A stretch of 64,000 bases of DNA from a virus. A program made the translations under genes and the position numbers. Location of the stretch: UHGV virus genome UHGV-0147904. One strand, given 5' to 3'. The notes under the pieces were generated by a model, which saw nothing but the letters and a program-made list of their open reading frames with translations, was not told the DNA's origin and made no database searches. Shown in pieces: positions 2,405 through 17,540 of this stretch (position 1 is its first letter; every line of letters begins with the position of its first letter).

Positions 2405-3889
2405 TTATTCATTAAGCCATGCCAGAGCTTCATCAACCTGCGCTTCGTCTTCGACGCTAAGCACTTCATCCTGGGGAACATAATCCGCCAGCATAGCGAA
2501 ACAATATGTATCCCAATGGTCTGGTGAGTGCAGGTTGAGTTTTTTCTTCATATCCTCCTTACTCATCACCTTCCATTGACCTGCGGAGTTAATCCCTACA
2601 GGGATTTTCGACGCTTCCTCAATAGTTTCATTACCCTTATCCAGTCTCATACGACCAGATTTTACGGCCTCTGCGGCTTGAACGTTGGCATAAGCACGTT
2701 TATCAAAGTACAGGCTCTTATCTTCACGGCTATGCATCTTTTTACCCCAGCGTATACGCTGTACGGTAATACCATAATACTCGTACATCAGATCTGCCGT
2801 TGCTTTACCCAGCCCATCGCCGTCTATCGCTATGGTGATATTTGGGAATCGCTCAGGATTACATTCTGCGAAAATTTTGGCGGCAAGCTGCGTTTCTGTA
2901 ACGTCTGTGTATTCCAGCATTCGATAGTTGATTACACGGCGTTTATTTCTCTGGCCGGACACCATCATGATATTGATAACGGACTTATCCCGTCCCGTAC
3001 CACCAGCAACGTCCACACATGCAAGCCAGCCCCATCCTTTGGCAATCTTGACTTTCCGCCGCGTCGCACGTTCAACCTCATCACGTCCAAGAAGGAAGCC
3101 ATCCTGTGATTTAGGGAATAGTCCGCGTACCTTAATCATGTACATAGGGTTATCACGCCCGCCGTACTCCGCCAGCTTCATTTTGATAAATGCTGGCGTT
3201 ACCAGCGGTGATTCCTCACTGTTAAGCGTGATCGCCGTATAAACGCCATCAGGGTTACCAGGACGCTTGGCCAGTTTATGGTGAGTATCGTAGAAATAGC
3301 CGCTTGGGCGTGTAGGCTGTGACAGTAATAAGATGCGGTTATCCTGTCCGGTAAGAGCACCGGTGATGATACCGAAAGCTCTATCACTGACACCGGAGGC
3401 TTCATCGATAATATACAGAAGATGATCTGCGTGTTCACCGGCGAGAGCTTCTTCACTTCCCAGACGAAAGCCCTTCGGTACTACAGTCCATACACCTTTA
3501 CCAGTAACCTCATAGAAAGCGGTTTCTGTCAGAACAAAATAATCAGCAAGCCATGGAAAACGGCTGGTGGCAGTAGCCCAGTTTATCTTGATGTACTTGA
3601 ATATACCGGTCATTACCTGCTGAATTTTGTTCGCAACGATAATGGCGCGGGCACCGGGATACATGATTATGAACAACATGATCATGATAGAAGTCATGTC
3701 TGATTTCCCGGTACCGTGACCAGACGAAACAGATGTCTTGCTACCCTGTTCCTGCACAGACTCAATAATCAGATCCTGCTGCCAGGTAGGTGTTTTGCCG
3801 AACAAAACATCAGCGGCAGCAATCCAGTCATAACGATATAGCGCCACCAGCTCGCGCCAACGTGGATCCGTTACGCAACTTCTGGCCAT
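2405..3889 (-). CDS. pacB: PacB, terminase large subunit (494 aa)
   Basis: 494-aa ORF directly downstream of pacA on the minus strand; size and position as in P1. Confidence 0.85.
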
Positions 3890-8785: not shown

Positions 8786-9054
8786 GGGCAGGTGTTCCCT
8801 TCCGCAAAGTAGGGAAAATTGCTATCAAGTTCATCACACCATCTGCGTTGGTCGTAGCACCAAAACGCCTCCCACGGTGCACGGAAATACTTCATCCACC
8901 AGGACACTCGATCAGGTATATCTGCTGGTGGCAGTTCTTCTGGCAATAATTTGCCTGATAATTCCCTTTCCGCCCGCGACAGCATTTTTTTGAGGCTCGC
9001 GTTCTCTTTTTCAAGCTCATCTACGCGCACCTGTAATTCAGCTTTCGTTGGCAT
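8770..9054 (-). CDS. hypothetical coiled-coil protein with C-terminal CPQCRG (94 aa from internal Met)
   Basis: GAGGTGG RBS 4 nt before ATG at 9052-9054 (MPTKAELQVRVDELEKEN...); longer track ORF starts at 9135. Confidence 0.45.
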   Translation of the reverse strand: MPTKAELQVRVDELEKENASLKKMLSRAERELSGKLLPEELPPADIPDRVSWWMKYFRAPWEAFWCYDQRRWCDELDSNFPYFAEGNTCPQCRG

Positions 9055-9976
9055 GGTCCACCTCATGCTTTTCAGCCACCAGCGGCAATAAAGCCCTGGC
9101 CATCTTATGAACCAATAGTGCATCAATAATGCCAAGCGTATGCCCCGGCTTAATGTTTAATGCCGCCTCAAGGTGACACCTTTCCAGGTCACTTTTCTCG
9201 GCTTGTTTATGATGATCTGGTGTAATAACGTCGCCCAAAACACGGCTAATTCTTTCTCGTAATTGCTGGGTGCCAGCACACTTGATCGCTGTATCGTGGA
9301 GACGGTTAACCAGTTCGCGATAAACATGCGGCTTAATGCGGATACGTTCACCGGTGACGCCCTTTCCTGGCGCTGGCACCGAACTATCCGGAATATCCGG
9401 ATAGTTGCCAGCCTCGTAAGCTACCCACAGCCAGTGCATGAATGTTTCAGTGGACACACAACCACAGTCCACATCGATTTTCCCGCGTTGCTGTTCCAGC
9501 CATTGCCCAAAATCCAACCTGTAAGTCTTACTTTCAAGTTCATCACCATTGAACTCGACTTTCTGCGACGCTATGAGAGCTGATTCGTATTGTTCGCGAG
9601 TGACAACTGACTGGTATTCATCGCTATCAAGGCCACCAATTGGAAGCTCAATCTCACAACAAAAATTGCGCCCAAAGAAAGTGTCTTTTTTGTGGTCTGA
9701 GCCAAAAGCAAAAGTCGCGCATGGTGCCATTAAATTGACACTGGGTAGGTAACAATAACTCATTCCATCAGGCCACCCGCCGCACTTAGGCAGCTCCTTC
9801 ACTAACAAGTCGATAAGCTTCATTTTTTTATCATCTTTGCAAGCCGCCAAAGCCATTTGGGCAAGTGCCAATACTTCATCTGCCGTATATCCAGCACCGT
9901 GACCATACATTTCGATACGGGAAATAATCTCTGATATACGCTCTTCAGTGATTCTGGTCATTTCTTTTTGCGCCAT
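9038..9976 (-). CDS. hypothetical protein (312 aa)
   Basis: Long ORF in operon context with short overlaps to neighbours. Confidence 0.6.
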   Translation of the reverse strand: MAQKEMTRITEERISEIISRIEMYGHGAGYTADEVLALAQMALAACKDDKKMKLIDLLVKELPKCGGWPDGMSYCYLPSVNLMAPCATFAFGSDHKKDTFFGRNFCCEIELPIGGLDSDEYQSVVTREQYESALIASQKVEFNGDELESKTYRLDFGQWLEQQRGKIDVDCGCVSTETFMHWLWVAYEAGNYPDIPDSSVPAPGKGVTGERIRIKPHVYRELVNRLHDTAIKCAGTQQLRERISRVLGDVITPDHHKQAEKSDLERCHLEAALNIKPGHTLGIIDALLVHKMARALLPLVAEKHEVDHANES

Positions 9977-10332
9977 TTCTTTTCACATTCCTTAGTCCAT
10001 TTTTCAATGTTCATTTTGGCAATATCGGTCATTCCATCACCTAAGAAATACTTTCTCCGGTATGTCTTGCACTTAAACCACACTACAACAGCCACCAGCC
10101 AGAAAATAAAAGGCCATACAGCAATACCAACGACTGCCGCGATAAAGCTCAATATCCATAAATGAAGCTCTCCAACTTCTGTTTCCGGCAATATTCTTAA
10201 AGAATTAAACAGTAGGCTGAACGCATGGTCGTATGCATTGGCAGTATAAGACATGCAATCCATATAATTAAAGTCATAGCCTGCGGCTGCCGCCCATAAT
10301 GGGCGGTCAAGAAAATGTTTTAGTGTCATCAT
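9958..10332 (-). CDS. hypothetical membrane protein (124 aa)
   Basis: Two predicted TM helices (ILSFIAAVVGIAVWPFIFWLVAVVVWF), Lys-rich C-terminus. Confidence 0.5.
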   Translation of the reverse strand: MMTLKHFLDRPLWAAAAGYDFNYMDCMSYTANAYDHAFSLLFNSLRILPETEVGELHLWILSFIAAVVGIAVWPFIFWLVAVVVWFKCKTYRRKYFLGDGMTDIAKMNIEKWTKECEKKWRKKK

Positions 10333-10338
10333 ATAAAT

Positions 10339-10728
10339 TTAAGGTTCAGACCAGTTATCTTCAATAGCAATGCTTAATCTTTGTAGCCATTCTGCTAATT
10401 TCAGCATTGCTTCTCTTTCGCTTAAACCACGAGGAAAATCATCAAGCGAAATTGTTGGCTTGAAGCCCCCGTAATTATCCATTTCAACTGTCAGATTTTG
10501 CTCCAGCACGGTATTCCTTACGCGGCTATTGTGCCGAAGCAAATATACTGAACGTGATTTATTGGTTTTATGGTCAAACTGATATTCGGTAAGTATCATC
10601 TGGCTTTTGCCATGACTATTACCTCTCCACATACTTACCTCACTTAATAAAACAACTCCATGCGTAGTTGATGATTTTTTCCCACGTAATATAAATCTGC
10701 ACTCCGGCAGTAAAACCAAAGCCAACAA
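10339..10728 (-). CDS. hypothetical protein (129 aa; start may be internal)
   Basis: ORF in operon context. Confidence 0.4.
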   Translation of the reverse strand: MLALVLLPECRFILRGKKSSTTHGVVLLSEVSMWRGNSHGKSQMILTEYQFDHKTNKSRSVYLLRHNSRVRNTVLEQNLTVEMDNYGGFKPTISLDDFPRGLSEREAMLKLAEWLQRLSIAIEDNWSEP

Positions 10729-10810
10729 TTGCTGAAAAAATCAAAACATTTACTTTTGACATTATAAATTTTCTCTCGGTGTCGTAGGTGATAGCACCAT
10801 AATTGATAAT

Positions 10811-11044
10811 TTAGTGAGTTAGCAGTTCCATTTTTTGGATGATTTCCGCATGAGCATCATCGTTATCAACACTTAACTCGTTTAATGCCTCTCGCACTAC
10901 ATCAACTTCTTCAGGCTGAAAGAAGTCGTCGCGGTAATCACCAAATAGAACCGAAACCAGCCTGCCACCAGCAACATCAAGATTGGCGCTAACAGGTGGC
11001 TCTTTGCCATCCTCAAATTCGACAACAAAAGTTAATTTTCCCAT
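10811..11044 (-). CDS. hypothetical acidic protein (77 aa)
   Basis: ORF with TAA-cg-ATG junction to the upstream micro-ORF. Confidence 0.5.
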   Translation of the reverse strand: MGKLTFVVEFEDGKEPPVSANLDVAGGRLVSVLFGDYRDDFFQPEEVDVVREALNELSVDNDDAHAEIIQKMELLTH

Positions 11045-11046
11045 CG

Positions 11047-11121
11047 TTACCCCCAGAAGATAAAAATAGCGGCAATCGCCATAGCTACGCCTACAATCGC
11101 AAATGCTTCAGGCCAGCTCAT
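11047..11121 (-). CDS. 24-aa hydrophobic peptide (MSWPEAFAIVGVAMAIAAIFIFWG)
   Basis: GAGGTG RBS; start overlaps upstream stop (TAATG); single TM-like segment; below ORF-track size cutoff. Confidence 0.3.
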   Translation of the reverse strand: MSWPEAFAIVGVAMAIAAIFIFWG

Positions 11122-11381
11122 TACCGCACCTCAAGTCTCCATGCCGCCTGACCAATCCGGCTGGCATGGGTATCTTTGGATACTGTTCCGTCTTTAGCCA
11201 GCTCCATAAGAATTTTGCGCAAATCTGCCGAGCGCCATTCTTCATCAGGAAATTCCTTCTCCATTGCCAACCGCAGATTCCAGGTTGCTATCGTGAATGG
11301 ATATTCACCGCCGAGAGCTTTCTCTTGTAGGGCAGCACGGGAACGCATCACCTGCAAAACCTTCTCTTTTACATCCATCAT
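11121..11381 (-). CDS. hypothetical protein (87 aa from internal Met)
   Basis: ATG overlaps the stop of the upstream 293-aa gene. Confidence 0.45.
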   Translation of the reverse strand: MMDVKEKVLQVMRSRAALQEKALGGEYPFTIATWNLRLAMEKEFPDEEWRSADLRKILMELAKDGTVSKDTHASRIGQAAWRLEVR

Positions 11382-12259
11382 TTCGCCTCCTGCGGCGGTT
11401 CTGGTAGCGGCATCCAGTGTGATGGAATCCACGACGCACCAGGAATTATCCAACCATCATTAGCGTCAGGATGTCCCGGTATGTAAGTCGCCCACTTCAT
11501 TCGCCAGTCACCTTTCCCGTCAAACTCCCTGGCAACAAGAACAGCTGTTTTGCTATCCGGCATTCGCTCACTACAGCTTATCCAATCATCCAGAGTTACC
11601 GGAGAATTGCCATTTACCAAGTCAGCTCGAACATATAGCGTGTCATCATGGTGCTGATTGTGGCTGCACCACGTTAATTCGCTTAACTCGCCATCTTCTG
11701 GCCATACTCCAGCCGTTTGCAGCCAGATATGGGCTGGCGCATCTTTGCAAGGTGTATTAACTGGCAACTTGTAAGTTTGGCTTACAGGTTCGGCACCATG
11801 AAGCATGGCGTCGCTCCGCTCTATGCCATCCAGCGCGATTCGCAGTGCATGAATTGTGGTAGAGCTATCGTTTGGGGCTATTCCATATCGCTCGAATACA
11901 GCTAAATGGTTGCGCATAATCTCAGGCGTAAGCTCTTTGTAAGCATAAGCAAGAGGCTCTGATGCATTATCCGGCACAACCGACGCAGGCGCGGCAGCAT
12001 AAACAGGAATAACGTCCGCTTGCTCTTTATTGCTTTCATCCGTTAAAGCCCAGAATAATTTCCCGGCCGGATGTTTGAAAATATAAGCAACTGGCTCTGC
12101 TTCCAGCGATGCCAGCGTAATTTCAGCCAGCTTGAGGTGAATAACCGCCGCATCATAAGCGCCTGGGACTCTTCCCACCGCAACGCGAAGAACCTCAATA
12201 TTCTTCTTAGCCTGCTCAATCAACTGCTCTTTGGTGAACTCTTTGGTAATCGTGATCAT
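11378..12259 (-). CDS. hypothetical protein with Trp-rich DUF551-like C-terminus (293 aa)
   Basis: C-terminal DDWISCSERMPD...WMPLPEPP resembles the prophage DUF551 motif. Confidence 0.6.
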   Translation of the reverse strand: MITITKEFTKEQLIEQAKKNIEVLRVAVGRVPGAYDAAVIHLKLAEITLASLEAEPVAYIFKHPAGKLFWALTDESNKEQADVIPVYAAAPASVVPDNASEPLAYAYKELTPEIMRNHLAVFERYGIAPNDSSTTIHALRIALDGIERSDAMLHGAEPVSQTYKLPVNTPCKDAPAHIWLQTAGVWPEDGELSELTWCSHNQHHDDTLYVRADLVNGNSPVTLDDWISCSERMPDSKTAVLVAREFDGKGDWRMKWATYIPGHPDANDGWIIPGASWIPSHWMPLPEPPQEAK

Positions 12260-12771
12260 GCCGCGTTTCCTTCTTTCTTATTAACAATTACACCGTCATA
12301 TATTTCATTAAGGTGCCCTCTCAACTCCATGCGCCTTAATGCAGATAACATGTAATCGCATTCAACCTGCTTATTTCCAGTAAATGGCTTATCGTCAGGA
12401 TTACCCCAACAGCAATTACCCTTGGGCCACCCATGTACTTTCCGTACTCTTCCGTTAACAACGTGAAGTAATCCCCAGCCAGGTGGTAAATCCTCAATTG
12501 AAATAATTCCCGGCTCACTAATAAAGAATCGCCAGTCGCCCATTCCAAGAGATGGATTTTTACGAAAACGCTTTTTTCTATCTGCCAACAAGTCAGCACG
12601 AGAACATTTCGCCTCTATCAGGCATGATGCTGAATTTCTGAATCCCATAGCATCTGGCTGTTCTCCGGTACTGGTTACAGCTATAAAGCGGTCATGAAAA
12701 CAAACCTTGAACCCGTTGCGCTTAAGGAACTTGTACGCAATCTGACAGAGTTCGCGGTGTGTTAACGCCAT
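12256..12771 (-). CDS. hypothetical protein, possible PD-(D/E)xK-like fold (171 aa from ATG)
   Basis: MALTHRELCQIAYKFLKRNGF...IEAKCSRAD; ATG at 12769-12771 directly after stop of a micro-ORF. Confidence 0.5.
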   Translation of the reverse strand: MALTHRELCQIAYKFLKRNGFKVCFHDRFIAVTSTGEQPDAMGFRNSASCLIEAKCSRADLLADRKKRFRKNPSLGMGDWRFFISEPGIISIEDLPPGWGLLHVVNGRVRKVHGWPKGNCCWGNPDDKPFTGNKQVECDYMLSALRRMELRGHLNEIYDGVIVNKKEGNAA

Positions 12772-12772
12772 A

Positions 12773-12961
12773 TCACTCTCCTTTAGTGCGCAAGTGGTTT
12801 TTCCAGCGGTTTTGCGCCGCGCTGGGCTTTTTGCAAAAACCACAATCCATCATCCCGTAATATTTCATCAACCCCATCCGTCGGTTGCTGAGTCTCACCC
12901 ACTGCCAGACGCCAGGAGCGTTTCTACGAACTAACAGAATCTTTGCTTTACGGTTTTTCAT
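12773..12961 (-). CDS. small basic protein (62 aa, MKNRKAK...)
   Basis: Track ORF; ATGA overlap with the upstream 58-aa paralog-like ORF. Confidence 0.3.
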   Translation of the reverse strand: MKNRKAKILLVRRNAPGVWQWVRLSNRRMGLMKYYGMMDCGFCKKPSAAQNRWKNHLRTKGE

Positions 12962-13134
12962 CTTACAGCGTACCCTTTCTTCCGCCTGTTCTGTGACGCA
13001 GTAGGCTTACGCTTTGCGGCAAAAGCCACCTGACCAAATGGATGGAGTACCGCTATCTTATGGTTGCTAATAACCAGCTCCACCACACGCACAGGTCGCT
13101 GTAAAAAAAGTCGTTTTGCCTTACGGTTTTTCAT
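12958..13134 (-). CDS. small basic protein (58 aa, MKNRKAKRLFLQRP...)
   Basis: Same N-terminus MKNRKAK as the downstream ORF; stop overlaps next start; preceded by a further 31-aa Arg-rich ORF. Confidence 0.25.
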   Translation of the reverse strand: MKNRKAKRLFLQRPVRVVELVISNHKIAVLHPFGQVAFAAKRKPTASQNRRKKGYAVR

Positions 13135-13306
13135 CGCTTTGCTCTCCTGCGTCTCTTTGCTGCTCGTCGTGCCGCTGCAATACCGGTATGGCGGCGCTTT
13201 GGTGCCGGGATGATGTTGTCAGCCATCAGGACATGTGGCTTTGCAATTAGCGCAGAAGCCCAAAAACGAGTCGGGTACGGTAACAAGCCGATACATGCCA
13301 CACGCA

Positions 13307-13996
13307 CTACTCACCTCCGTTGATGCGAATGCCAGCGGCACGGGAATCATTCCATCGCTTTACTTCTTCACGAATTACGTCAATGCATTCTTTCGAATCC
13401 ATTAGGTAATCTTCATCAAAAAGCCTTTCCTGTTCGTTTTCTATCGCAACAATGATTGCTTCAACTAACTTTTGTGCCTGAGAACCACTTTCTAACTCTG
13501 CAATGCGCTTCTCTGCGGCTTCCAGCTTCTCGCGCATATCGTCAACGTACTCGACCAGAGATCCGCCAGCAGGAATTTCGCACTCCTCGACCAGTTGGAA
13601 GTAGATATCAGCTGCGGCCCGTGTGTTGCTATGCCTAGCGTCGCCCATCTCACCTTCACGAAGAGCATCGCGTTCGGCGGTAAGATTGGCTATTTTGCTG
13701 TCTTTGCCTTCCAGCTCAACGCGAAGCCTCCCTACCGTTAGCGCAATTTCCTCGTTCTCCTGGTCGCGGGATTTGATGTATTGCTGGTTCCTTTCCCGTT
13801 CATCCAGTAGTGCCAGCACGGTTTCTGGTCCGGCCAGAAATTTGAAGGCGTTGAGCGCATCAATATCCACACCGTAATCTTTAAGTTCCTGTTCACTTAA
13901 CAAATCATCATCAGCTGGCAACATTAACAGGCGTTCCATTGCTGGAATTGCACGTTCCGCCGCCTCACGCAGTGCCTGATAATCAATCTTGCTCAC
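13307..13996 (-). CDS. Ea22-like coiled-coil protein (229 aa)
   Basis: N-terminus MSKIDYQALREAAER shared with paralog at 14990-15523; acidic coiled coil. Confidence 0.55.
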   Translation of the reverse strand: MSKIDYQALREAAERAIPAMERLLMLPADDDLLSEQELKDYGVDIDALNAFKFLAGPETVLALLDERERNQQYIKSRDQENEEIALTVGRLRVELEGKDSKIANLTAERDALREGEMGDARHSNTRAAADIYFQLVEECEIPAGGSLVEYVDDMREKLEAAEKRIAELESGSQAQKLVEAIIVAIENEQERLFDEDYLMDSKECIDVIREEVKRWNDSRAAGIRINGGE

Positions 13997-14706
13997 TGGT
14001 TGCCTCCTTTGCGAAGCTGGGCAGCAAAGTCAACTAACCACTCAGTCATTTCAACCTTCCCTACCAGGTCTGAACCAGGGTGCATACAGCAATCACTCTG
14101 CGCCGCTTTGAAATCCTTATACTCATATTCTTGGGCCACCAGATTTTTTGCAGCTTCTATAGCAGCATCCACCCCCTGCGCCCGAACTTCAGCCAGGAAA
14201 GCGTCGGTGGCTGGAATTTGCGGCATCCCTCCGTCTGTTGCGCAGATATACGCATCAGATATTTCATCCTGCTGGCCATCAAACACGTAGCAACAGCCCC
14301 TGATAAACAGCTTCATTGAGGCATTCTCCACTGCCAGCGCCGTGCGATTACCATCCAGCTCTGCAATGCGCTGTTTTGCGGCATCCAGTTCAATCGACAA
14401 TTTTTCCAACTGCTCTTGATGCTTCTTGTATTCCTGATATGCGTGCCAAGACTGACCTTTGCGCACACTATCAGTGATATCAGTAATCTGTTCTGGTGTT
14501 AGCGTGGTCAGTGGCTGTGATGGGAAAATAAGCACTTTCCCGGAATCCCAATCAAAACCAGCGTGAATTGACTGAACCTCAACTGAAGGTGTTGAACCAA
14601 TGCTGCCAGGCGAATGAACAACGATTGTTACATCCATATCGCGACGATGGCTGTGGTTGTTGGACAAAATACGATTCACCAACTCAGAAAATTTGGAAAA
14701 TTTCAT
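13993..14706 (-). CDS. Ea22-like paralog (237 aa)
   Basis: Shares PATDAFLAEVRA and C-terminal LRKGGNQ with neighbours. Confidence 0.55.
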   Translation of the reverse strand: MKFSKFSELVNRILSNNHSHRRDMDVTIVVHSPGSIGSTPSVEVQSIHAGFDWDSGKVLIFPSQPLTTLTPEQITDITDSVRKGQSWHAYQEYKKHQEQLEKLSIELDAAKQRIAELDGNRTALAVENASMKLFIRGCCYVFDGQQDEISDAYICATDGGMPQIPATDAFLAEVRAQGVDAAIEAAKNLVAQEYEYKDFKAAQSDCCMHPGSDLVGKVEMTEWLVDFAAQLRKGGNQ

Positions 14707-15026
14707 GCTGATTCCCCTTTCTCTGCTCTCTCCTGTCGGAACATCACTATCATCAGGTCGCCTTTTGTCGCTATCCTGGCTGTTGTACCTGGTTCAATGC
14801 GGCTAAGCTCAAATGCGTCATAGAACGCTTCTAATGCCTTCTGGCGTAGTTCCTGTTTGCGCCGTTTTTTCCACTGTTTTAGGAAAATGGAACCCAGCCA
14901 TCGCCATGTACGGGACATGATGTAAAGCCAACCGAGAAGTGCCAGACCGGTATTTAGGAGCGTATCGATCGTTATTGTCGTGTCGATATTCACTGGCTGC
15001 TTCCTTTGCGAATCTGTTCCGCCCAT
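14703..15026 (-). CDS. small membrane protein (107 aa)
   Basis: One TM segment, basic stretch KQWKKRRKQ. Confidence 0.4.
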   Translation of the reverse strand: MGGTDSQRKQPVNIDTTITIDTLLNTGLALLGWLYIMSRTWRWLGSIFLKQWKKRRKQELRQKALEAFYDAFELSRIEPGTTARIATKGDLMIVMFRQERAEKGESA

Positions 15027-15523
15027 TCTTCAAGGGATTTCTCCGCATATTCACCAGACAGGCCATCAATCGGATGCGCTTCATTAGCCAACTCTTCTTT
15101 CGCTGACAAAATCATGCGTGTAACGTCGAAAACTTCACGCAAAGACTTATTGATAAATCCGTGATTGAACGCAGCAGCAAGACGGCTGGCGGTATAGTTA
15201 ATCCCCTCGTTGCGTGCTTCCGCACGAATTTCAGCCAGAAAAGCATCGGTAGCTGGAGTTTCGCTGTGGTGTAGGGCATCGTTGATAATCATTGCAGCAA
15301 CACCAGCCTGCCCTGCATCCGTGACCGACACATGCTCAAGAGTTACGGCCATTGCGTTTTTCAGCCCATCAAAGCCGGTCCATTTGATAACATCTTCACA
15401 TCGTTTATCACCGGGCGTATGCACCGCATACGTACCAGTGCCCGGCGAAATAAATGCGACCCATTCGCCCTGTGTTGCCTGTTTTGCTATCTCACGCAGT
15501 GCCCGGTAATTAATTTTGCTCAC
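14990..15523 (-). CDS. Ea22-like paralog (177 aa from GTG)
   Basis: VSKINYRALREIAKQ matches the start of the 13307-13996 protein; C-terminal IRKGSSQ. Confidence 0.5.
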   Translation of the reverse strand: MSKINYRALREIAKQATQGEWVAFISPGTGTYAVHTPGDKRCEDVIKWTGFDGLKNAMAVTLEHVSVTDAGQAGVAAMIINDALHHSETPATDAFLAEIRAEARNEGINYTASRLAAAFNHGFINKSLREVFDVTRMILSAKEELANEAHPIDGLSGEYAEKSLEEWAEQIRKGSSQ

Positions 15524-15759
15524 TGGCTGCCTCCTTTGCGGAGTTGCGCTTCGATGCACGAAAAAAAAGACTCCCGAGTATGACTGTTAAGAGCTGGTGC
15601 GAACGCCGCGTTAAGAACGGCAGCATCACAGCCGTCATCAATATAGAGCGCAATTTTTTTCTCCAGGCGCGCTTTGGCTTCCTGCAACTGCATACCCCGG
15701 CACGCACGCGGGATATAATCAGCAATTTGAGCGATAGCTTTTTCGTTCTGTTTAAACAT
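15520..15759 (-). CDS. short Ea22-like C-terminal paralog (79 aa)
   Basis: Ends LRKGGSQ like the larger paralogs. Confidence 0.45.
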   Translation of the reverse strand: MFKQNEKAIAQIADYIPRACRGMQLQEAKARLEKKIALYIDDGCDAAVLNAAFAPALNSHTRESFFSCIEAQLRKGGSQ

Positions 15760-15955
15760 GCTTCACCTCGATAGGCTTGATGGTGTCTAACAGCAGTCGA
15801 CGGCGCGTATTTTCTGCAAAGTGGCGGCGTCCGGTATCTTTGTGGTAAAACTCATTTTTGCCGACGACCCACATCCGCTCTGTTTGGTGCAGTTTTTTTA
15901 CCTGCGGACCGTCTTTGGTGATCACGGTGCCGGTATGGGTTTTTACGATTGTCAT
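15752..15955 (-). CDS. hypothetical basic protein (67 aa)
   Basis: ORF in operon context. Confidence 0.4.
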   Translation of the reverse strand: MTIVKTHTGTVITKDGPQVKKLHQTERMWVVGKNEFYHKDTGRRHFAENTRRRLLLDTIKPIEVKHV

Positions 15956-16038
15956 GCCACTACCTATTCGAACAGATGAACGAGACAGGCTGATGCTCGT
16001 CCACCTGAAAAACTGACGATTTGATGCATACTCACGGT

Positions 16039-16767
16039 TTATTCCTGAATGCGCTTAAACTCGATTACCCACACCCAGGGATTAGCGTTCCAGCTTTCTT
16101 CACCATAGATGGATTCCCACAGGCGCTGGAACGCAACCTTGGCCATTGCGAAATCCCCCTTGGGAGTAAGGAATGTTCCCGGGTGATCAGGAAGCAAACT
16201 TCCAGCAGGCGGAACGCCCTCAGCCCTTGCATCGCATTCGCTGATATCGTTCAACCGTTCAACGCGCACGTTGGTAATTTCCAACAGAATGCGTGATGCC
16301 CATCGCGGCATGTGAATTGATGGACGCCACCCACCATCAAACTTTTCATTCACAGTGTGAGGTTTCCAGTCGGCATCATCGGGTATCGACCATAAGCCGT
16401 AATCACCAGGTTTTTGCTCGCAACTGGCCCGATAAATCCTTGCTGCGTTCTTCTCATCGCCACGACAAAGGTTGTCGTTCCAGTCCACACTGCAACCATC
16501 CTCATTGCCTAATATCGCCCATGTTTCACGAACCCAAATTCGATCGCCGACGATACCAAAGGGGCAATTGAAAACACTGCTTACACCATCAGCCCCGTAC
16601 CACTGAAAACCTGCACCAATTTCCCTAACCATCACTGGTGCTTCTGGACCAACTTCCGCAGGCTGATTTTTCATTATCCGCCGCGTCTGCGTTTTCCTTC
16701 CTTCGAGGATGGCTCGGACCATCTCATCGTTAAAAATCATGCCGCGCTCTTTCACTTCGCCTTTCAT
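16039..16767 (-). CDS. ASCH/PUA-like domain protein (242 aa)
   Basis: N-terminal MIFNDEMVRAILEGRKTQTRR is typical of ASCH-domain proteins. Confidence 0.55.
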   Translation of the reverse strand: MKGEVKERGMIFNDEMVRAILEGRKTQTRRIMKNQPAEVGPEAPVMVREIGAGFQWYGADGVSSVFNCPFGIVGDRIWVRETWAILGNEDGCSVDWNDNLCRGDEKNAARIYRASCEQKPGDYGLWSIPDDADWKPHTVNEKFDGGWRPSIHMPRWASRILLEITNVRVERLNDISECDARAEGVPPAGSLLPDHPGTFLTPKGDFAMAKVAFQRLWESIYGEESWNANPWVWVIEFKRIQE

Positions 16768-16776
16768 GCATCCCCC

Positions 16777-16863
16777 TTACCCATGTGCGACGATGCCGCC
16801 AAAAGTGATAGAGAACAGCCAGAAATAGATCGCGGCCATAATGATTTTGAATGCCGTGTTCAT
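16777..16863 (-). CDS. 28-aa hydrophobic peptide (MNTAFKIIMAAIYFWLFSITFGGIVAHG)
   Basis: AGGAG RBS 8 nt upstream; ends 10 nt before the next gene; below track cutoff. Confidence 0.3.
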   Translation of the reverse strand: MNTAFKIIMAAIYFWLFSITFGGIVAHG

Positions 16864-16945
16864 ATTTTCAGCTCCTGTGATTGATTGGATACATGCCGCG
16901 CCTTGCGGCATGTTTTTATTTTCACTTTCTCTGTTTTAAAAATCA

Positions 16946-16962
16946 ATATTTATTAGAGCAAT
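16946..16962. promoter_or_regulatory. C1 operator
   Basis: atatttattagagcaat, 16/17 to reverse consensus; ends on the stop codon of the HAD gene. Confidence 0.65.
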
Positions 16963-17468
16963 TATTGTTGATGGAGAAGCGCGTTTTCATACTCCCTGAC
17001 CATTAACGTAAGCACGCCGTGCCTCCTGAAAACACGCGCCACTTCAATCTTATCTTCCAGCGCGAACGCGATTTTACTTAGACCAATTTTCTTAAGGAGA
17101 TCAATCTTTGCTGGGCCGTCATTTCTGTCATCGGTGGCAGGACGCATAGATAGCAAAGGCTCAGCCCCGTTTGTTACGTACTTCCGCAGCCAGGCTCGTG
17201 TTTTATCCCTTGCGATCTCACAGCGCCCGGTTACAAACCAGACCGTGTAAACGTTAAATAACTGGCGCACAATATCAATAACTGGAGTTATGGGAGTATC
17301 AGTGTCACAGGCGAGATTAAACTCGTTCCAGTCCTTTGTTAATGCACCTTTACCTGGTGGCGGAAGCAAATGCAGTCTGTCTTCAGTTGCCTCTGATATT
17401 GTTCCATCAATATCAACTATGACGATATACGGACGTTCCTGGTGTGCGTGTTTATTGAAAATACTCAA
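16962..17468 (-). CDS. HAD-superfamily phosphatase (168 aa)
   Basis: Motif I IVDIDGTI (DxDGT) near the N-terminus; fold like polynucleotide 3'-phosphatase or nucleotidase. Confidence 0.65.
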   Translation of the reverse strand: MSIFNKHAHQERPYIVIVDIDGTISEATEDRLHLLPPPGKGALTKDWNEFNLACDTDTPITPVIDIVRQLFNVYTVWFVTGRCEIARDKTRAWLRKYVTNGAEPLLSMRPATDDRNDGPAKIDLLKKIGLSKIAFALEDKIEVARVFRRHGVLTLMVREYENALLHQQ

Positions 17469-17540
17469 ATGCCCTCCTCATTGGACGAAAAAAATGCTGG
17501 TGGGCGCACTCCACCAGCATTAAAAGTGACACTGTAACTG

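Follow-up and report, generated by a model that had tools for sequence, protein, structure and literature searches.

Three conserved small genes for very basic proteins, joined by stop/start overlaps, downstream of an Ea22-like gene on a P1-like phage-plasmid

Introduction

Beside the gene for an acidic Ea22-like protein, a P1-like phage-plasmid carries a run of very small reading frames that overlap at their stops and starts and encode strongly basic peptides. Are these frames genes, how many of them are there, and what might their products do? The stretch in question is the minus strand of positions 12773-13307 of the window, by which we mean the whole 64,000 nucleotides analyzed from virus genome UHGV-0147904. 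A first-pass annotation had described it as four consecutive, translationally coupled open reading frames (ORFs) of 25, 31, 58 and 62 aa, with products resembling nucleic-acid-binding or ribosomal-protein-like polycations, set between Ea22-like genes and a PD-(D/E)xK-like gene.

[quoted passage not shown] Early transcription of this region is described for Stx phage 24B, where ea22 is among the early and strongly transcribed genes (PMC4195576). These two studies do not treat the ORFs described here individually, and the exo-xis proteins modeled in PMC8614690 do not include them. Here, comparison with relatives indicates that the stretch is made up of three real and conserved genes of 58, 58 and 62 codons, placed back to back, which we call ORF-A, ORF-B and ORF-C.

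Results

Both the ORF list and the sequence contain an unbroken chain of small ORFs with stop/start overlaps throughout 12773-13307 on the minus strand, as first described. All features named below lie on that strand. Upstream is the 229-aa Ea22-like gene (13307..13996), which matches PF13935 (Ead_Ea22, E=1.1e-28) and has a net charge of -24, bearing out the earlier identification of this flank. The last base of its stop, base 13307, is also the first base of the GTG start of ORF-A (58 aa, 13131..13307), and the GGAGG Shine-Dalgarno (SD) sequence of ORF-A (13314..13318) can be read within the end of the Ea22-like gene. ORF-A ends in an ATGA overlap (13134-13131) with ORF-B (58 aa, 12958..13134), whose AGGAG SD at 13144..13148 falls within the last ORF-A codons, where it is read as RRR. 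ORF-B shares a second ATGA (12961-12958) with ORF-C (62 aa, 12773..12961), which stops with TGA at 12775-12773. A single nucleotide, and not two as had been counted, separates this stop from ATG 12771, the start of a 171-aa gene (12256..12771) that matches phrog_631 and phrog_9263; its AAGGAG SD (12778..12783) is within the last codons of ORF-C, which encode TKGE before the stop. The stop of the 171-aa gene overlaps the start of a DUF551 gene (ATGA at 12259-12256). Read in order, the junctions are TAGTG, ATGA, ATGA, TGA-T-ATG and again ATGA, each with a purine-rich SD within the last codons of the preceding gene. The 171-aa protein has a D...E-x-K motif and gave no match in Pfam, NCBIfam or PDB sequences; its description as PD-(D/E)xK-like is possible rather than established.

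Upstream of the two ORFs that begin with MKNRKAK, the first-pass annotation counted two genes and our parse has one. The 25-aa ORF (13296..13219) is another frame of ORF-A, and the 31-aa ORF, which begins at ATG 13226, is an in-frame part of the conserved 58-aa ORF 13307..13131, namely its C-terminal half. The two had been described as linked by TGATG; they overlap by 8 nt (ATGGCTGA). The peptide ending in RRAAKRRRRAKR is present, as reported, and terminates in the ATGA overlap with the first MKNRKAK gene.

ORF-A is matched over its full length by the profile of phrog_13831 (1-58 of 58, E=8.6e-42) and has 86 homologues. Copies of ORF-A (n=163) were located by the N-terminal peptide motif alone. 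Every one is intact, reading through to the polybasic tail and ending in ATGA with an MKNRKAK gene, and every one lies between an Ea22-like gene and an MKNRKAK gene. The start codon is ATG in 113 of these 163 copies and GTG in the other 50, as in the window. This A/G polymorphism preserves the upstream stop (TAA or TAG) and the ORF-A start alike, as TAATG or TAGTG. GGAGG precedes the start in 142 of the 163, in the form AGGTGAGTA(A/G)TG. Insertions and deletions among relatives are of 3, 6 or 21 nt only, and substitutions show codon periodicity. The ratio pN/pS is 0.43 in the ORF-A frame (0.45 in the first 30 codons and 0.38 in the rest) versus 1.05 and 1.28 in the two other frames, the last value being that of the 25-aa ORF, which is thus under no constraint. 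The 21-nt deletion, found in many relatives including the 933W/Sakai type, leaves ORF-A in frame at 51 aa, whereas the 31-aa ORF loses its ATG and the 25-aa ORF its stop. Across 41 distinct upstream contexts, the conserved block starts at AAGIRI(K/N)GGE and its stop and runs through TAATG or TAGTG into the ORF-A frame, and these last ~11 codons are kept before ORF-A even when the upstream genes are otherwise different. A frameshifted or truncated variant of ORF-A (P0167) was present on 95 contigs.

ORF-A has a hydrophobic N-terminal half followed by a polybasic C-terminal tail, TGIAAARRAAKRRRRAKR. Within this tail, RRRAKR is what the purine-rich SD of the following gene and its spacer (ACGCAGGAGAGCAAAGCGATGA) encode in frame. 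The ribosome-binding site (RBS) of ORF-B thus dictates part of the basic tail, and at other loci unrelated upstream ORFs run through it too. For example, a truncated Ea22 N-terminus at locus L090 would, as read from that sequence, also end in RRRAKR, and the junction at L003 reads the same segment in a different frame. The basic region of ORF-A reaches well past the RBS block and is invariant at the protein level. Comparison by hhalign found no relationship between ORF-A and ORF-B or ORF-C, which ruled out ORF-A as a degenerate third copy of the MKNRKAK family.

The observation that the 58-aa and 62-aa ORFs (13134..12958 and 12961..12773) both start with MKNRKAK and are joined by ATGA held, and the two are paralogues in tandem, with a full-length identity of 37%, that belong to phrog_1380, a narrow family of enterobacterial phages. 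The match to the phrog_1380 profile spans its full length, over 1-62 of 62 for ORF-C (E=1e-40) and 1-60 of 62 for ORF-B (E=6.5e-23), and in the alignments both copies have all three motifs of the family, M(K/N)NRKA(K/R)xL, (I/V)SN(R/H) and SAAQNR(W/R)K, at lengths within the family range of 58-65 aa. A word-indexed search returned 61 relatives, and 1.84 billion representatives, searched exhaustively with an HMM, yielded 48 clusters of small proteins at 50% identity, most of them short proteins with the same three motifs. Where the source names an organism, it is Escherichia or Salmonella or one of their phages. In distant members the motifs persist although the codons differ and some residues are conservatively replaced, as in MNNRKAR and TASQNRRKK.

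When MKNRKAK units were located by the 5' DNA motif alone, ~96% were intact, with lengths of 58-65 codons. In 102 unique DNA units, pN/pS was 0.56 in frame and 1.06 and 1.08 in the other frames, in a codon alignment that was derived from the protein alignment and slightly favors frame 0. Sliding windows placed the constraint in three blocks: an N-terminal MKNRKAK (0 to 0.16), a central turn, ISNRR (about 0.3; in the family (I/V)SN(R/H)(R/K)), and a C-terminal helix, SAAQNRWKNH (0.15 to 0.26), with nearly neutral, fast-evolving linkers between them. Within the blocks pS is 0.2-0.5 and pN is 0-0.09; because synonymous sites vary inside the conserved blocks, it is the protein, rather than the DNA alone, that is constrained. 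The variable middle gave no convincing signal of positive selection, with ratios of ~0.7 to 1.3 that were mostly below 1 among close pairs. Near-identical copies of ORF-B differ at 9 synonymous and 6 nonsynonymous sites. Chimeric B/C units exist, and the databases hold frameshifted or truncated variants (P0054, P0060, P0078, P0080 and P0088). The genes are therefore dispensable and sometimes decaying; such variants are expected for dispensable prophage genes.

The arrangement of the junctions is conserved as well. Close stop/start junctions were found in all 163 ORF-A contexts and in 174 of 182 distinct MKNRKAK contexts, where the next start lies at -4 (ATGA) or +1 (TGAnATG) relative to the stop. 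The genes downstream of the MKNRKAK stop belong to at least 7 different families. A 20-nt block, ACGCAGGAGAGCAAARCGATGA, precedes the first MKNRKAK gene, even in the L003 group and at L090, two types of loci that have no ORF-A; L087 and L089 lack it at this position. Identical 5' ends (RBS plus MKNRKAK) and 3' ends (TKGE, stop and SD) were found beside very different neighbors, and deletions between similar SD-bearing junctions were seen.

Searches for RNA and regulatory elements gave no candidate in this stretch. A scan of 11000-15000 against Rfam at E<=1 gave no match, and the folding energy of the ORF-A region was no better than that of shuffled sequences (z = -0.08). We found no promoter-like sites. 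The three terminator-like sites equal the number expected by chance and all lie outside 12773-13307. An RNA element in the region was rejected on these grounds.

The P1-like plasmid pSA186_4 is identical (100%) to part of the window, and the search that showed this also matched 1,379 E. coli genomes. On the plasmid, the operon is flanked by the pmgS/pap and hot/humD/phd-doc sides of the P1 backbone, and its genes are of lambdoid type (Ea22-like, DUF551 and eaa). ORF-A with one or two MKNRKAK genes is also present in lambdoid prophages, and in Stx phages ORF-A and ORF-C are found in the exo-xis region, directly after ea22. MKNRKAK genes without any Ea22-like neighbor occur at three loci (L087, L091 and L100).

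The products of the three genes are very basic, as had been noted, with net charges of +14, +15 and +14 for ORF-A, ORF-B and ORF-C and pI values of 11.3 to 12.0. A confident AlphaFold2 model of ORF-C built with the family alignment (pLDDT 80.5) has three beta strands and a basic C-terminal helix; the conserved SN is in the first turn, and AAQNRWKNH is on the helix. The ORF-A model is of low confidence (pLDDT 65) and consists of a hydrophobic helix and a basic helix. Pfam, NCBIfam and PADLOC gave no accepted match for any of the three proteins, and PDB sequence and fold searches matched no family. The proposed likeness to ribosomal proteins was not borne out, since the Pfam, NCBIfam and PDB searches returned no family at all, ribosomal ones included. 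A weak match to zf-C2H2_jaz (E=0.096) was rejected because its Cys and His positions vary within the family. No significant structural superposition was obtained with DNA-binding domains of the three-strand-plus-helix AP2 or integrase-arm type. The anti-phage defense models of PADLOC matched neither the three ORFs nor five neighboring genes. The phrog_1380 family has no name and no Pfam model, and we found no family, fold or paper that assigns a function to ORF-A, ORF-B or ORF-C.

The three genes are annotated unevenly in public records. The counterpart of ORF-C is WP_000797279.1, annotated on the pSA186_4 segment that is 100% identical to part of the window, and in locus L002 the place of ORF-B is taken by an annotated 58-aa hypothetical protein, WP_000797289.1. 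These and phrog_1380 are hypothetical proteins of E. coli and Salmonella temperate phages, with no difference in sequence; phrog_13831 is likewise a 58-aa hypothetical phage protein, from which the window's ORF-A differs in having GTG, not ATG, as its start. ORF-A is without annotation in most records, and one or both MKNRKAK copies are missing in 933W, TL-2011c and RCS47. The RefSeq record of pSA186_4 leaves 529 nt blank here, the original 933W record has no gene call over ORF-A and most of ORF-C, and RCS47 and TL-2011c annotate one MKNRKAK copy only. In VT2-Sakai a 155-aa 'orf8', which corresponds to phrog_12350, is drawn across the segment and is probably a mis-call across frames. A full-text literature search for MKNRKAK returned nothing. 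Neither the Sakai small-gene Ribo-seq paper nor the Enterobacteriaceae microproteome preprint has the MKNRKAK or ORF-A peptide strings in its supplements, and these sources together gave no Ribo-seq or proteomic record for the three ORFs.

Discussion

The chain is more than a product of chance, because its frames, overlaps and three conserved motifs are retained over many distinct genomic contexts. Purifying selection acts on each of the three genes only in its own frame (pN/pS 0.43-0.56 versus about 1.05-1.28 in other frames), 96 to 100% of copies are intact, and insertions and deletions are multiples of 3. On this comparative evidence we hold the coding status and the boundaries of ORF-A, ORF-B and ORF-C with high confidence, and the pattern of evolution points to their translation. 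The frame and overlap conservation that the first-pass annotation had named as a check on its proposal was found for these genes of 58, 58 and 62 aa; its proposal of coupled, translated basic peptides stands as to coding for three genes and falls for four.

Several other readings of the stretch deserve consideration. The four separate micro-ORFs, including a stand-alone 31-aa polyarginine peptide, do exist in the window with ATG starts, and the 31-aa ORF lies in the conserved frame, such that internal initiation at Met28 of ORF-A is conceivable. However, ATG 13226 has no SD, whereas GGAGG stands before the GTG/ATG at 13307; the N-terminal half of ORF-A is constrained in its own frame and the 25-aa frame is not; and the 21-nt deletion of the 933W and Sakai type removes the very start and stop on which the two small ORFs depend while the 58-aa frame is kept. 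We regard translation as four separate units as very improbable. It is harder still to credit that a non-coding RNA element or a regulatory leader fills the interval from the Ea22-like gene to the first MKNRKAK gene. The blank left there in the records of pSA186_4, the chromosomal prophage L002, RCS47, TL-2011c and the original 933W would fit such an element, but the Rfam, folding, promoter and terminator results speak against it, as do codon-periodic substitutions and indels in multiples of three. A third reading holds that the ends of the units are kept mainly as DNA, serving as recombination linkers or boundaries in mosaic lambdoid genomes, with the ORFs incidental and the peptides functionless. 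Identical ends beside very different neighbors, chimeric B/C units, deletions between similar SD-bearing junctions and an almost neutral middle of the protein all agree with it. It does not account for blocks in which synonymous sites vary and the protein does not, for constraint on the central ISNRR block although this is distant from any junction, for motifs that distant members hold by different codons and conservative replacements, or for the large share of intact units in an unbiased sample. We consider it improbable, if less so than the two readings above. Three protein-coding genes remain our reading of the stretch.

We propose that the region is the middle of an accessory operon of the lambdoid exo-xis or nin type, carried on a P1-like phage-plasmid, and that the three genuine small genes would be read from one minus-strand transcript. 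Translational coupling along the chain is likely, judging from the junctions: ribosomes that end one gene may re-initiate on the next. Such a relay would make the output of ORF-A, ORF-B and ORF-C depend on that of their upstream neighbor, the acidic Ea22-like gene. The genes' conserved ends, 5' and 3', also work as portable junctions of stop, SD and start at which recombination has joined different neighbors. Taken as a whole, the account of a lambdoid-type operon with three coupled polycation genes, likely binders of nucleic acid or of acidic partners, is one that we favor on balance, with the reserve due to a reading of sequences.

As to function, charge and the predicted fold tentatively suggest that the three proteins might bind nucleic acid or acidic partners during early phage development; with low confidence, the Ea22-like protein of the same message may be one such partner. 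An alternative is that the proteins bind proteins and not nucleic acid; for example, they could pair stoichiometrically with, or inhibit, the acidic Ea22-like or DUF551 protein of the same message or an acidic target in the host. Small early phage proteins often target host proteins. The genes are coupled to acidic neighbors (net charges of -24 for the Ea22-like and -16 for the DUF551 protein, against +14 to +15 each for the basic proteins), and ORF-A always lies directly after a gene ending in AAGIRI(K/N)GGE; but MKNRKAK genes also occur at the three loci that have no Ea22-like neighbor, and we think this narrower reading rather unlikely. More speculatively, and with considerable doubt, ORF-A and the MKNRKAK proteins could form an unrecognized class of small basic early regulators in temperate enterobacterial phages, 933W and Sakai among them. 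Such regulators might be putative arginine-rich RNA- or DNA-binding proteins, or Ea22 partners.

The practical value of this analysis lies mostly in annotation, as it places three conserved small genes directly downstream of ea22 that are often missed or mis-called. It also serves as a pointer to three uncharacterized early genes beside ea22 in Shiga-toxin phages; if expressed, ORF-A, ORF-B and ORF-C would be candidates for some of the exo-xis phenotypes. The locus also shows cleanly how conserved gene ends, with the RBS and first codons on one side and the last codons, SD, stop and start on the other, work as portable junctions between the genes of mosaic phages. In kind this is nothing new: public databases already list the genes as hypothetical proteins and PHROG families, ATGA-chained early operons are known in lambdoid phages, and nothing here would surprise a phage specialist.

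Comparison with known systems places the three genes by locus, size and gene organization. The small ORFs of the lambda and Stx exo-xis regions (orf60a, orf63, orf61, orf73, ea8.5 and orf55) occupy the same kind of locus and belong to the same size class. No homology was detected to Orf55, Orf60a, Orf63 or Orf73. No family member matched DUF1317, DUF1382 or TraR/DksA (zf-dskA_traR). Lambda Orf55, with a predicted fold of three strands and a helix (PMC8614690), was examined as a possible relative of the proteins described here and rejected: hhalign gave a probability of 0.7%, and Orf55, like T7 Gp2-like folds, is acidic whereas the products of ORF-A, ORF-B and ORF-C are strongly basic. A different resemblance is to the arginine-rich-motif RNA-binding peptides of lambda and P22 N and HK022 Nun, which the proteins recall in a short Arg/Lys-rich helical segment with Ala spacing (TGIAAARRAAKRRRR) and in a basic helix whose Trp is conserved (AAQNRWKNH). 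The motif is N-terminal in N and Nun, whereas here it is C-terminal and partly set by the RBS of the next gene, and the resemblance is one of composition; we detected no homology, no boxB-like RNA target and no RNA-family match nearby. A further parallel is in the organization of the genes. Lambdoid early operons, in the nin and ea regions, likewise contain chains of ATGA and TAATG junctions in which the SD falls within the preceding gene, one after another along the whole operon, so the junction mechanism that we propose would be a known feature and not a new one. Conserved gene-boundary sequences that flank mosaic modules are characteristic of lambdoid genome organization.

Signs of recombination at the small genes

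The three small genes of the minus strand are ORF-A (58 aa, 13307..13131; phrog_13831) and the tandem paralogues ORF-B (58 aa, 13134..12958) and ORF-C (62 aa, 12961..12773), both of which begin with MKNRKAK (phrog_1380). In viral loci L102-L181, chimeric MKNRKAK genes combine a body of the ORF-C type with a C-terminus of the ORF-B type (…KKPSASQNRRKKGYAVR), which indicates that the tandem paralogues have recombined with each other. In the double-frameshift variants P0054 and P0060, both conserved ends stay in frame. ORF-A is absent from the junction region of L003, L016 and L021 and from L090 (about 2920-3000), where the sequence reads as an Ea22 N-terminus that is cut short and runs straight into the RRRAKR* / ATGA junction. 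These variants look like deletions between two similar boundary sequences bearing Shine-Dalgarno motifs, …CAAAGGAG and …CAAAGAGACGCAGGAG, and they point to recombination at gene-boundary micro-homologies.

Certain database "proteins" in this region look like mis-calls or read-through fusions. The 155-aa orf8 of VT2-Sakai (phrog_12350; L223 3722-4189) runs through the part of ORF-A that is out of frame and on through ORF-C, and phrog_9263 (230 aa) is ORF-C fused to the 171-aa downstream protein, a fusion that requires a frameshift at TGAtATG.

Neighboring genes

In the 171-aa protein (12256-12771, minus strand), D and E-x-K residues are arranged as …EQPDAMGF…LIEAKC… (D…E-x-K). Pfam, NCBIfam and PDB yielded no match for this protein, and only a weak one, at E=0.003, came from a PHROG described as "DNA repair protein". 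Its PD-(D/E)xK label is plausible but unproven. Many relatives have a 69-aa Cys-rich protein in its place. On the other side of the small genes, Ea22-like genes form a tandem pair (13307-14706, minus strand) with a GTGA overlap at the junction. Both the 237-aa (14706..13993) and 229-aa (13996..13307) products matched phrog_368, and only the second, not the 237-aa one, passed the Pfam Ead_Ea22 model.

Relationship to pSA186_4 and the P1-like backbone

RefSeq lists an incomplete Ea22-like gene in the P1-like plasmid pSA186_4 (L001/L222) and assigns a frameshift to the gene that follows ORF-C there. Because the window has intact ORFs at both positions, the window is a close relative of pSA186_4, not identical to it, beyond their 701-nt match. 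Within the P1-like backbone lies a lambdoid exo-xis / nin-type gene block (about 9000-17500, minus strand) containing Ea22-like, ORF-A/B/C, DUF551 and eaa genes, flanked by the pmgS/pap side on one end and the hot (theta)/humD/phd-doc side on the other. The same block occupies 56000-72000 of pSA186_4 (L222), and it looks like a mosaic insertion of lambdoid genes into a phage-plasmid.
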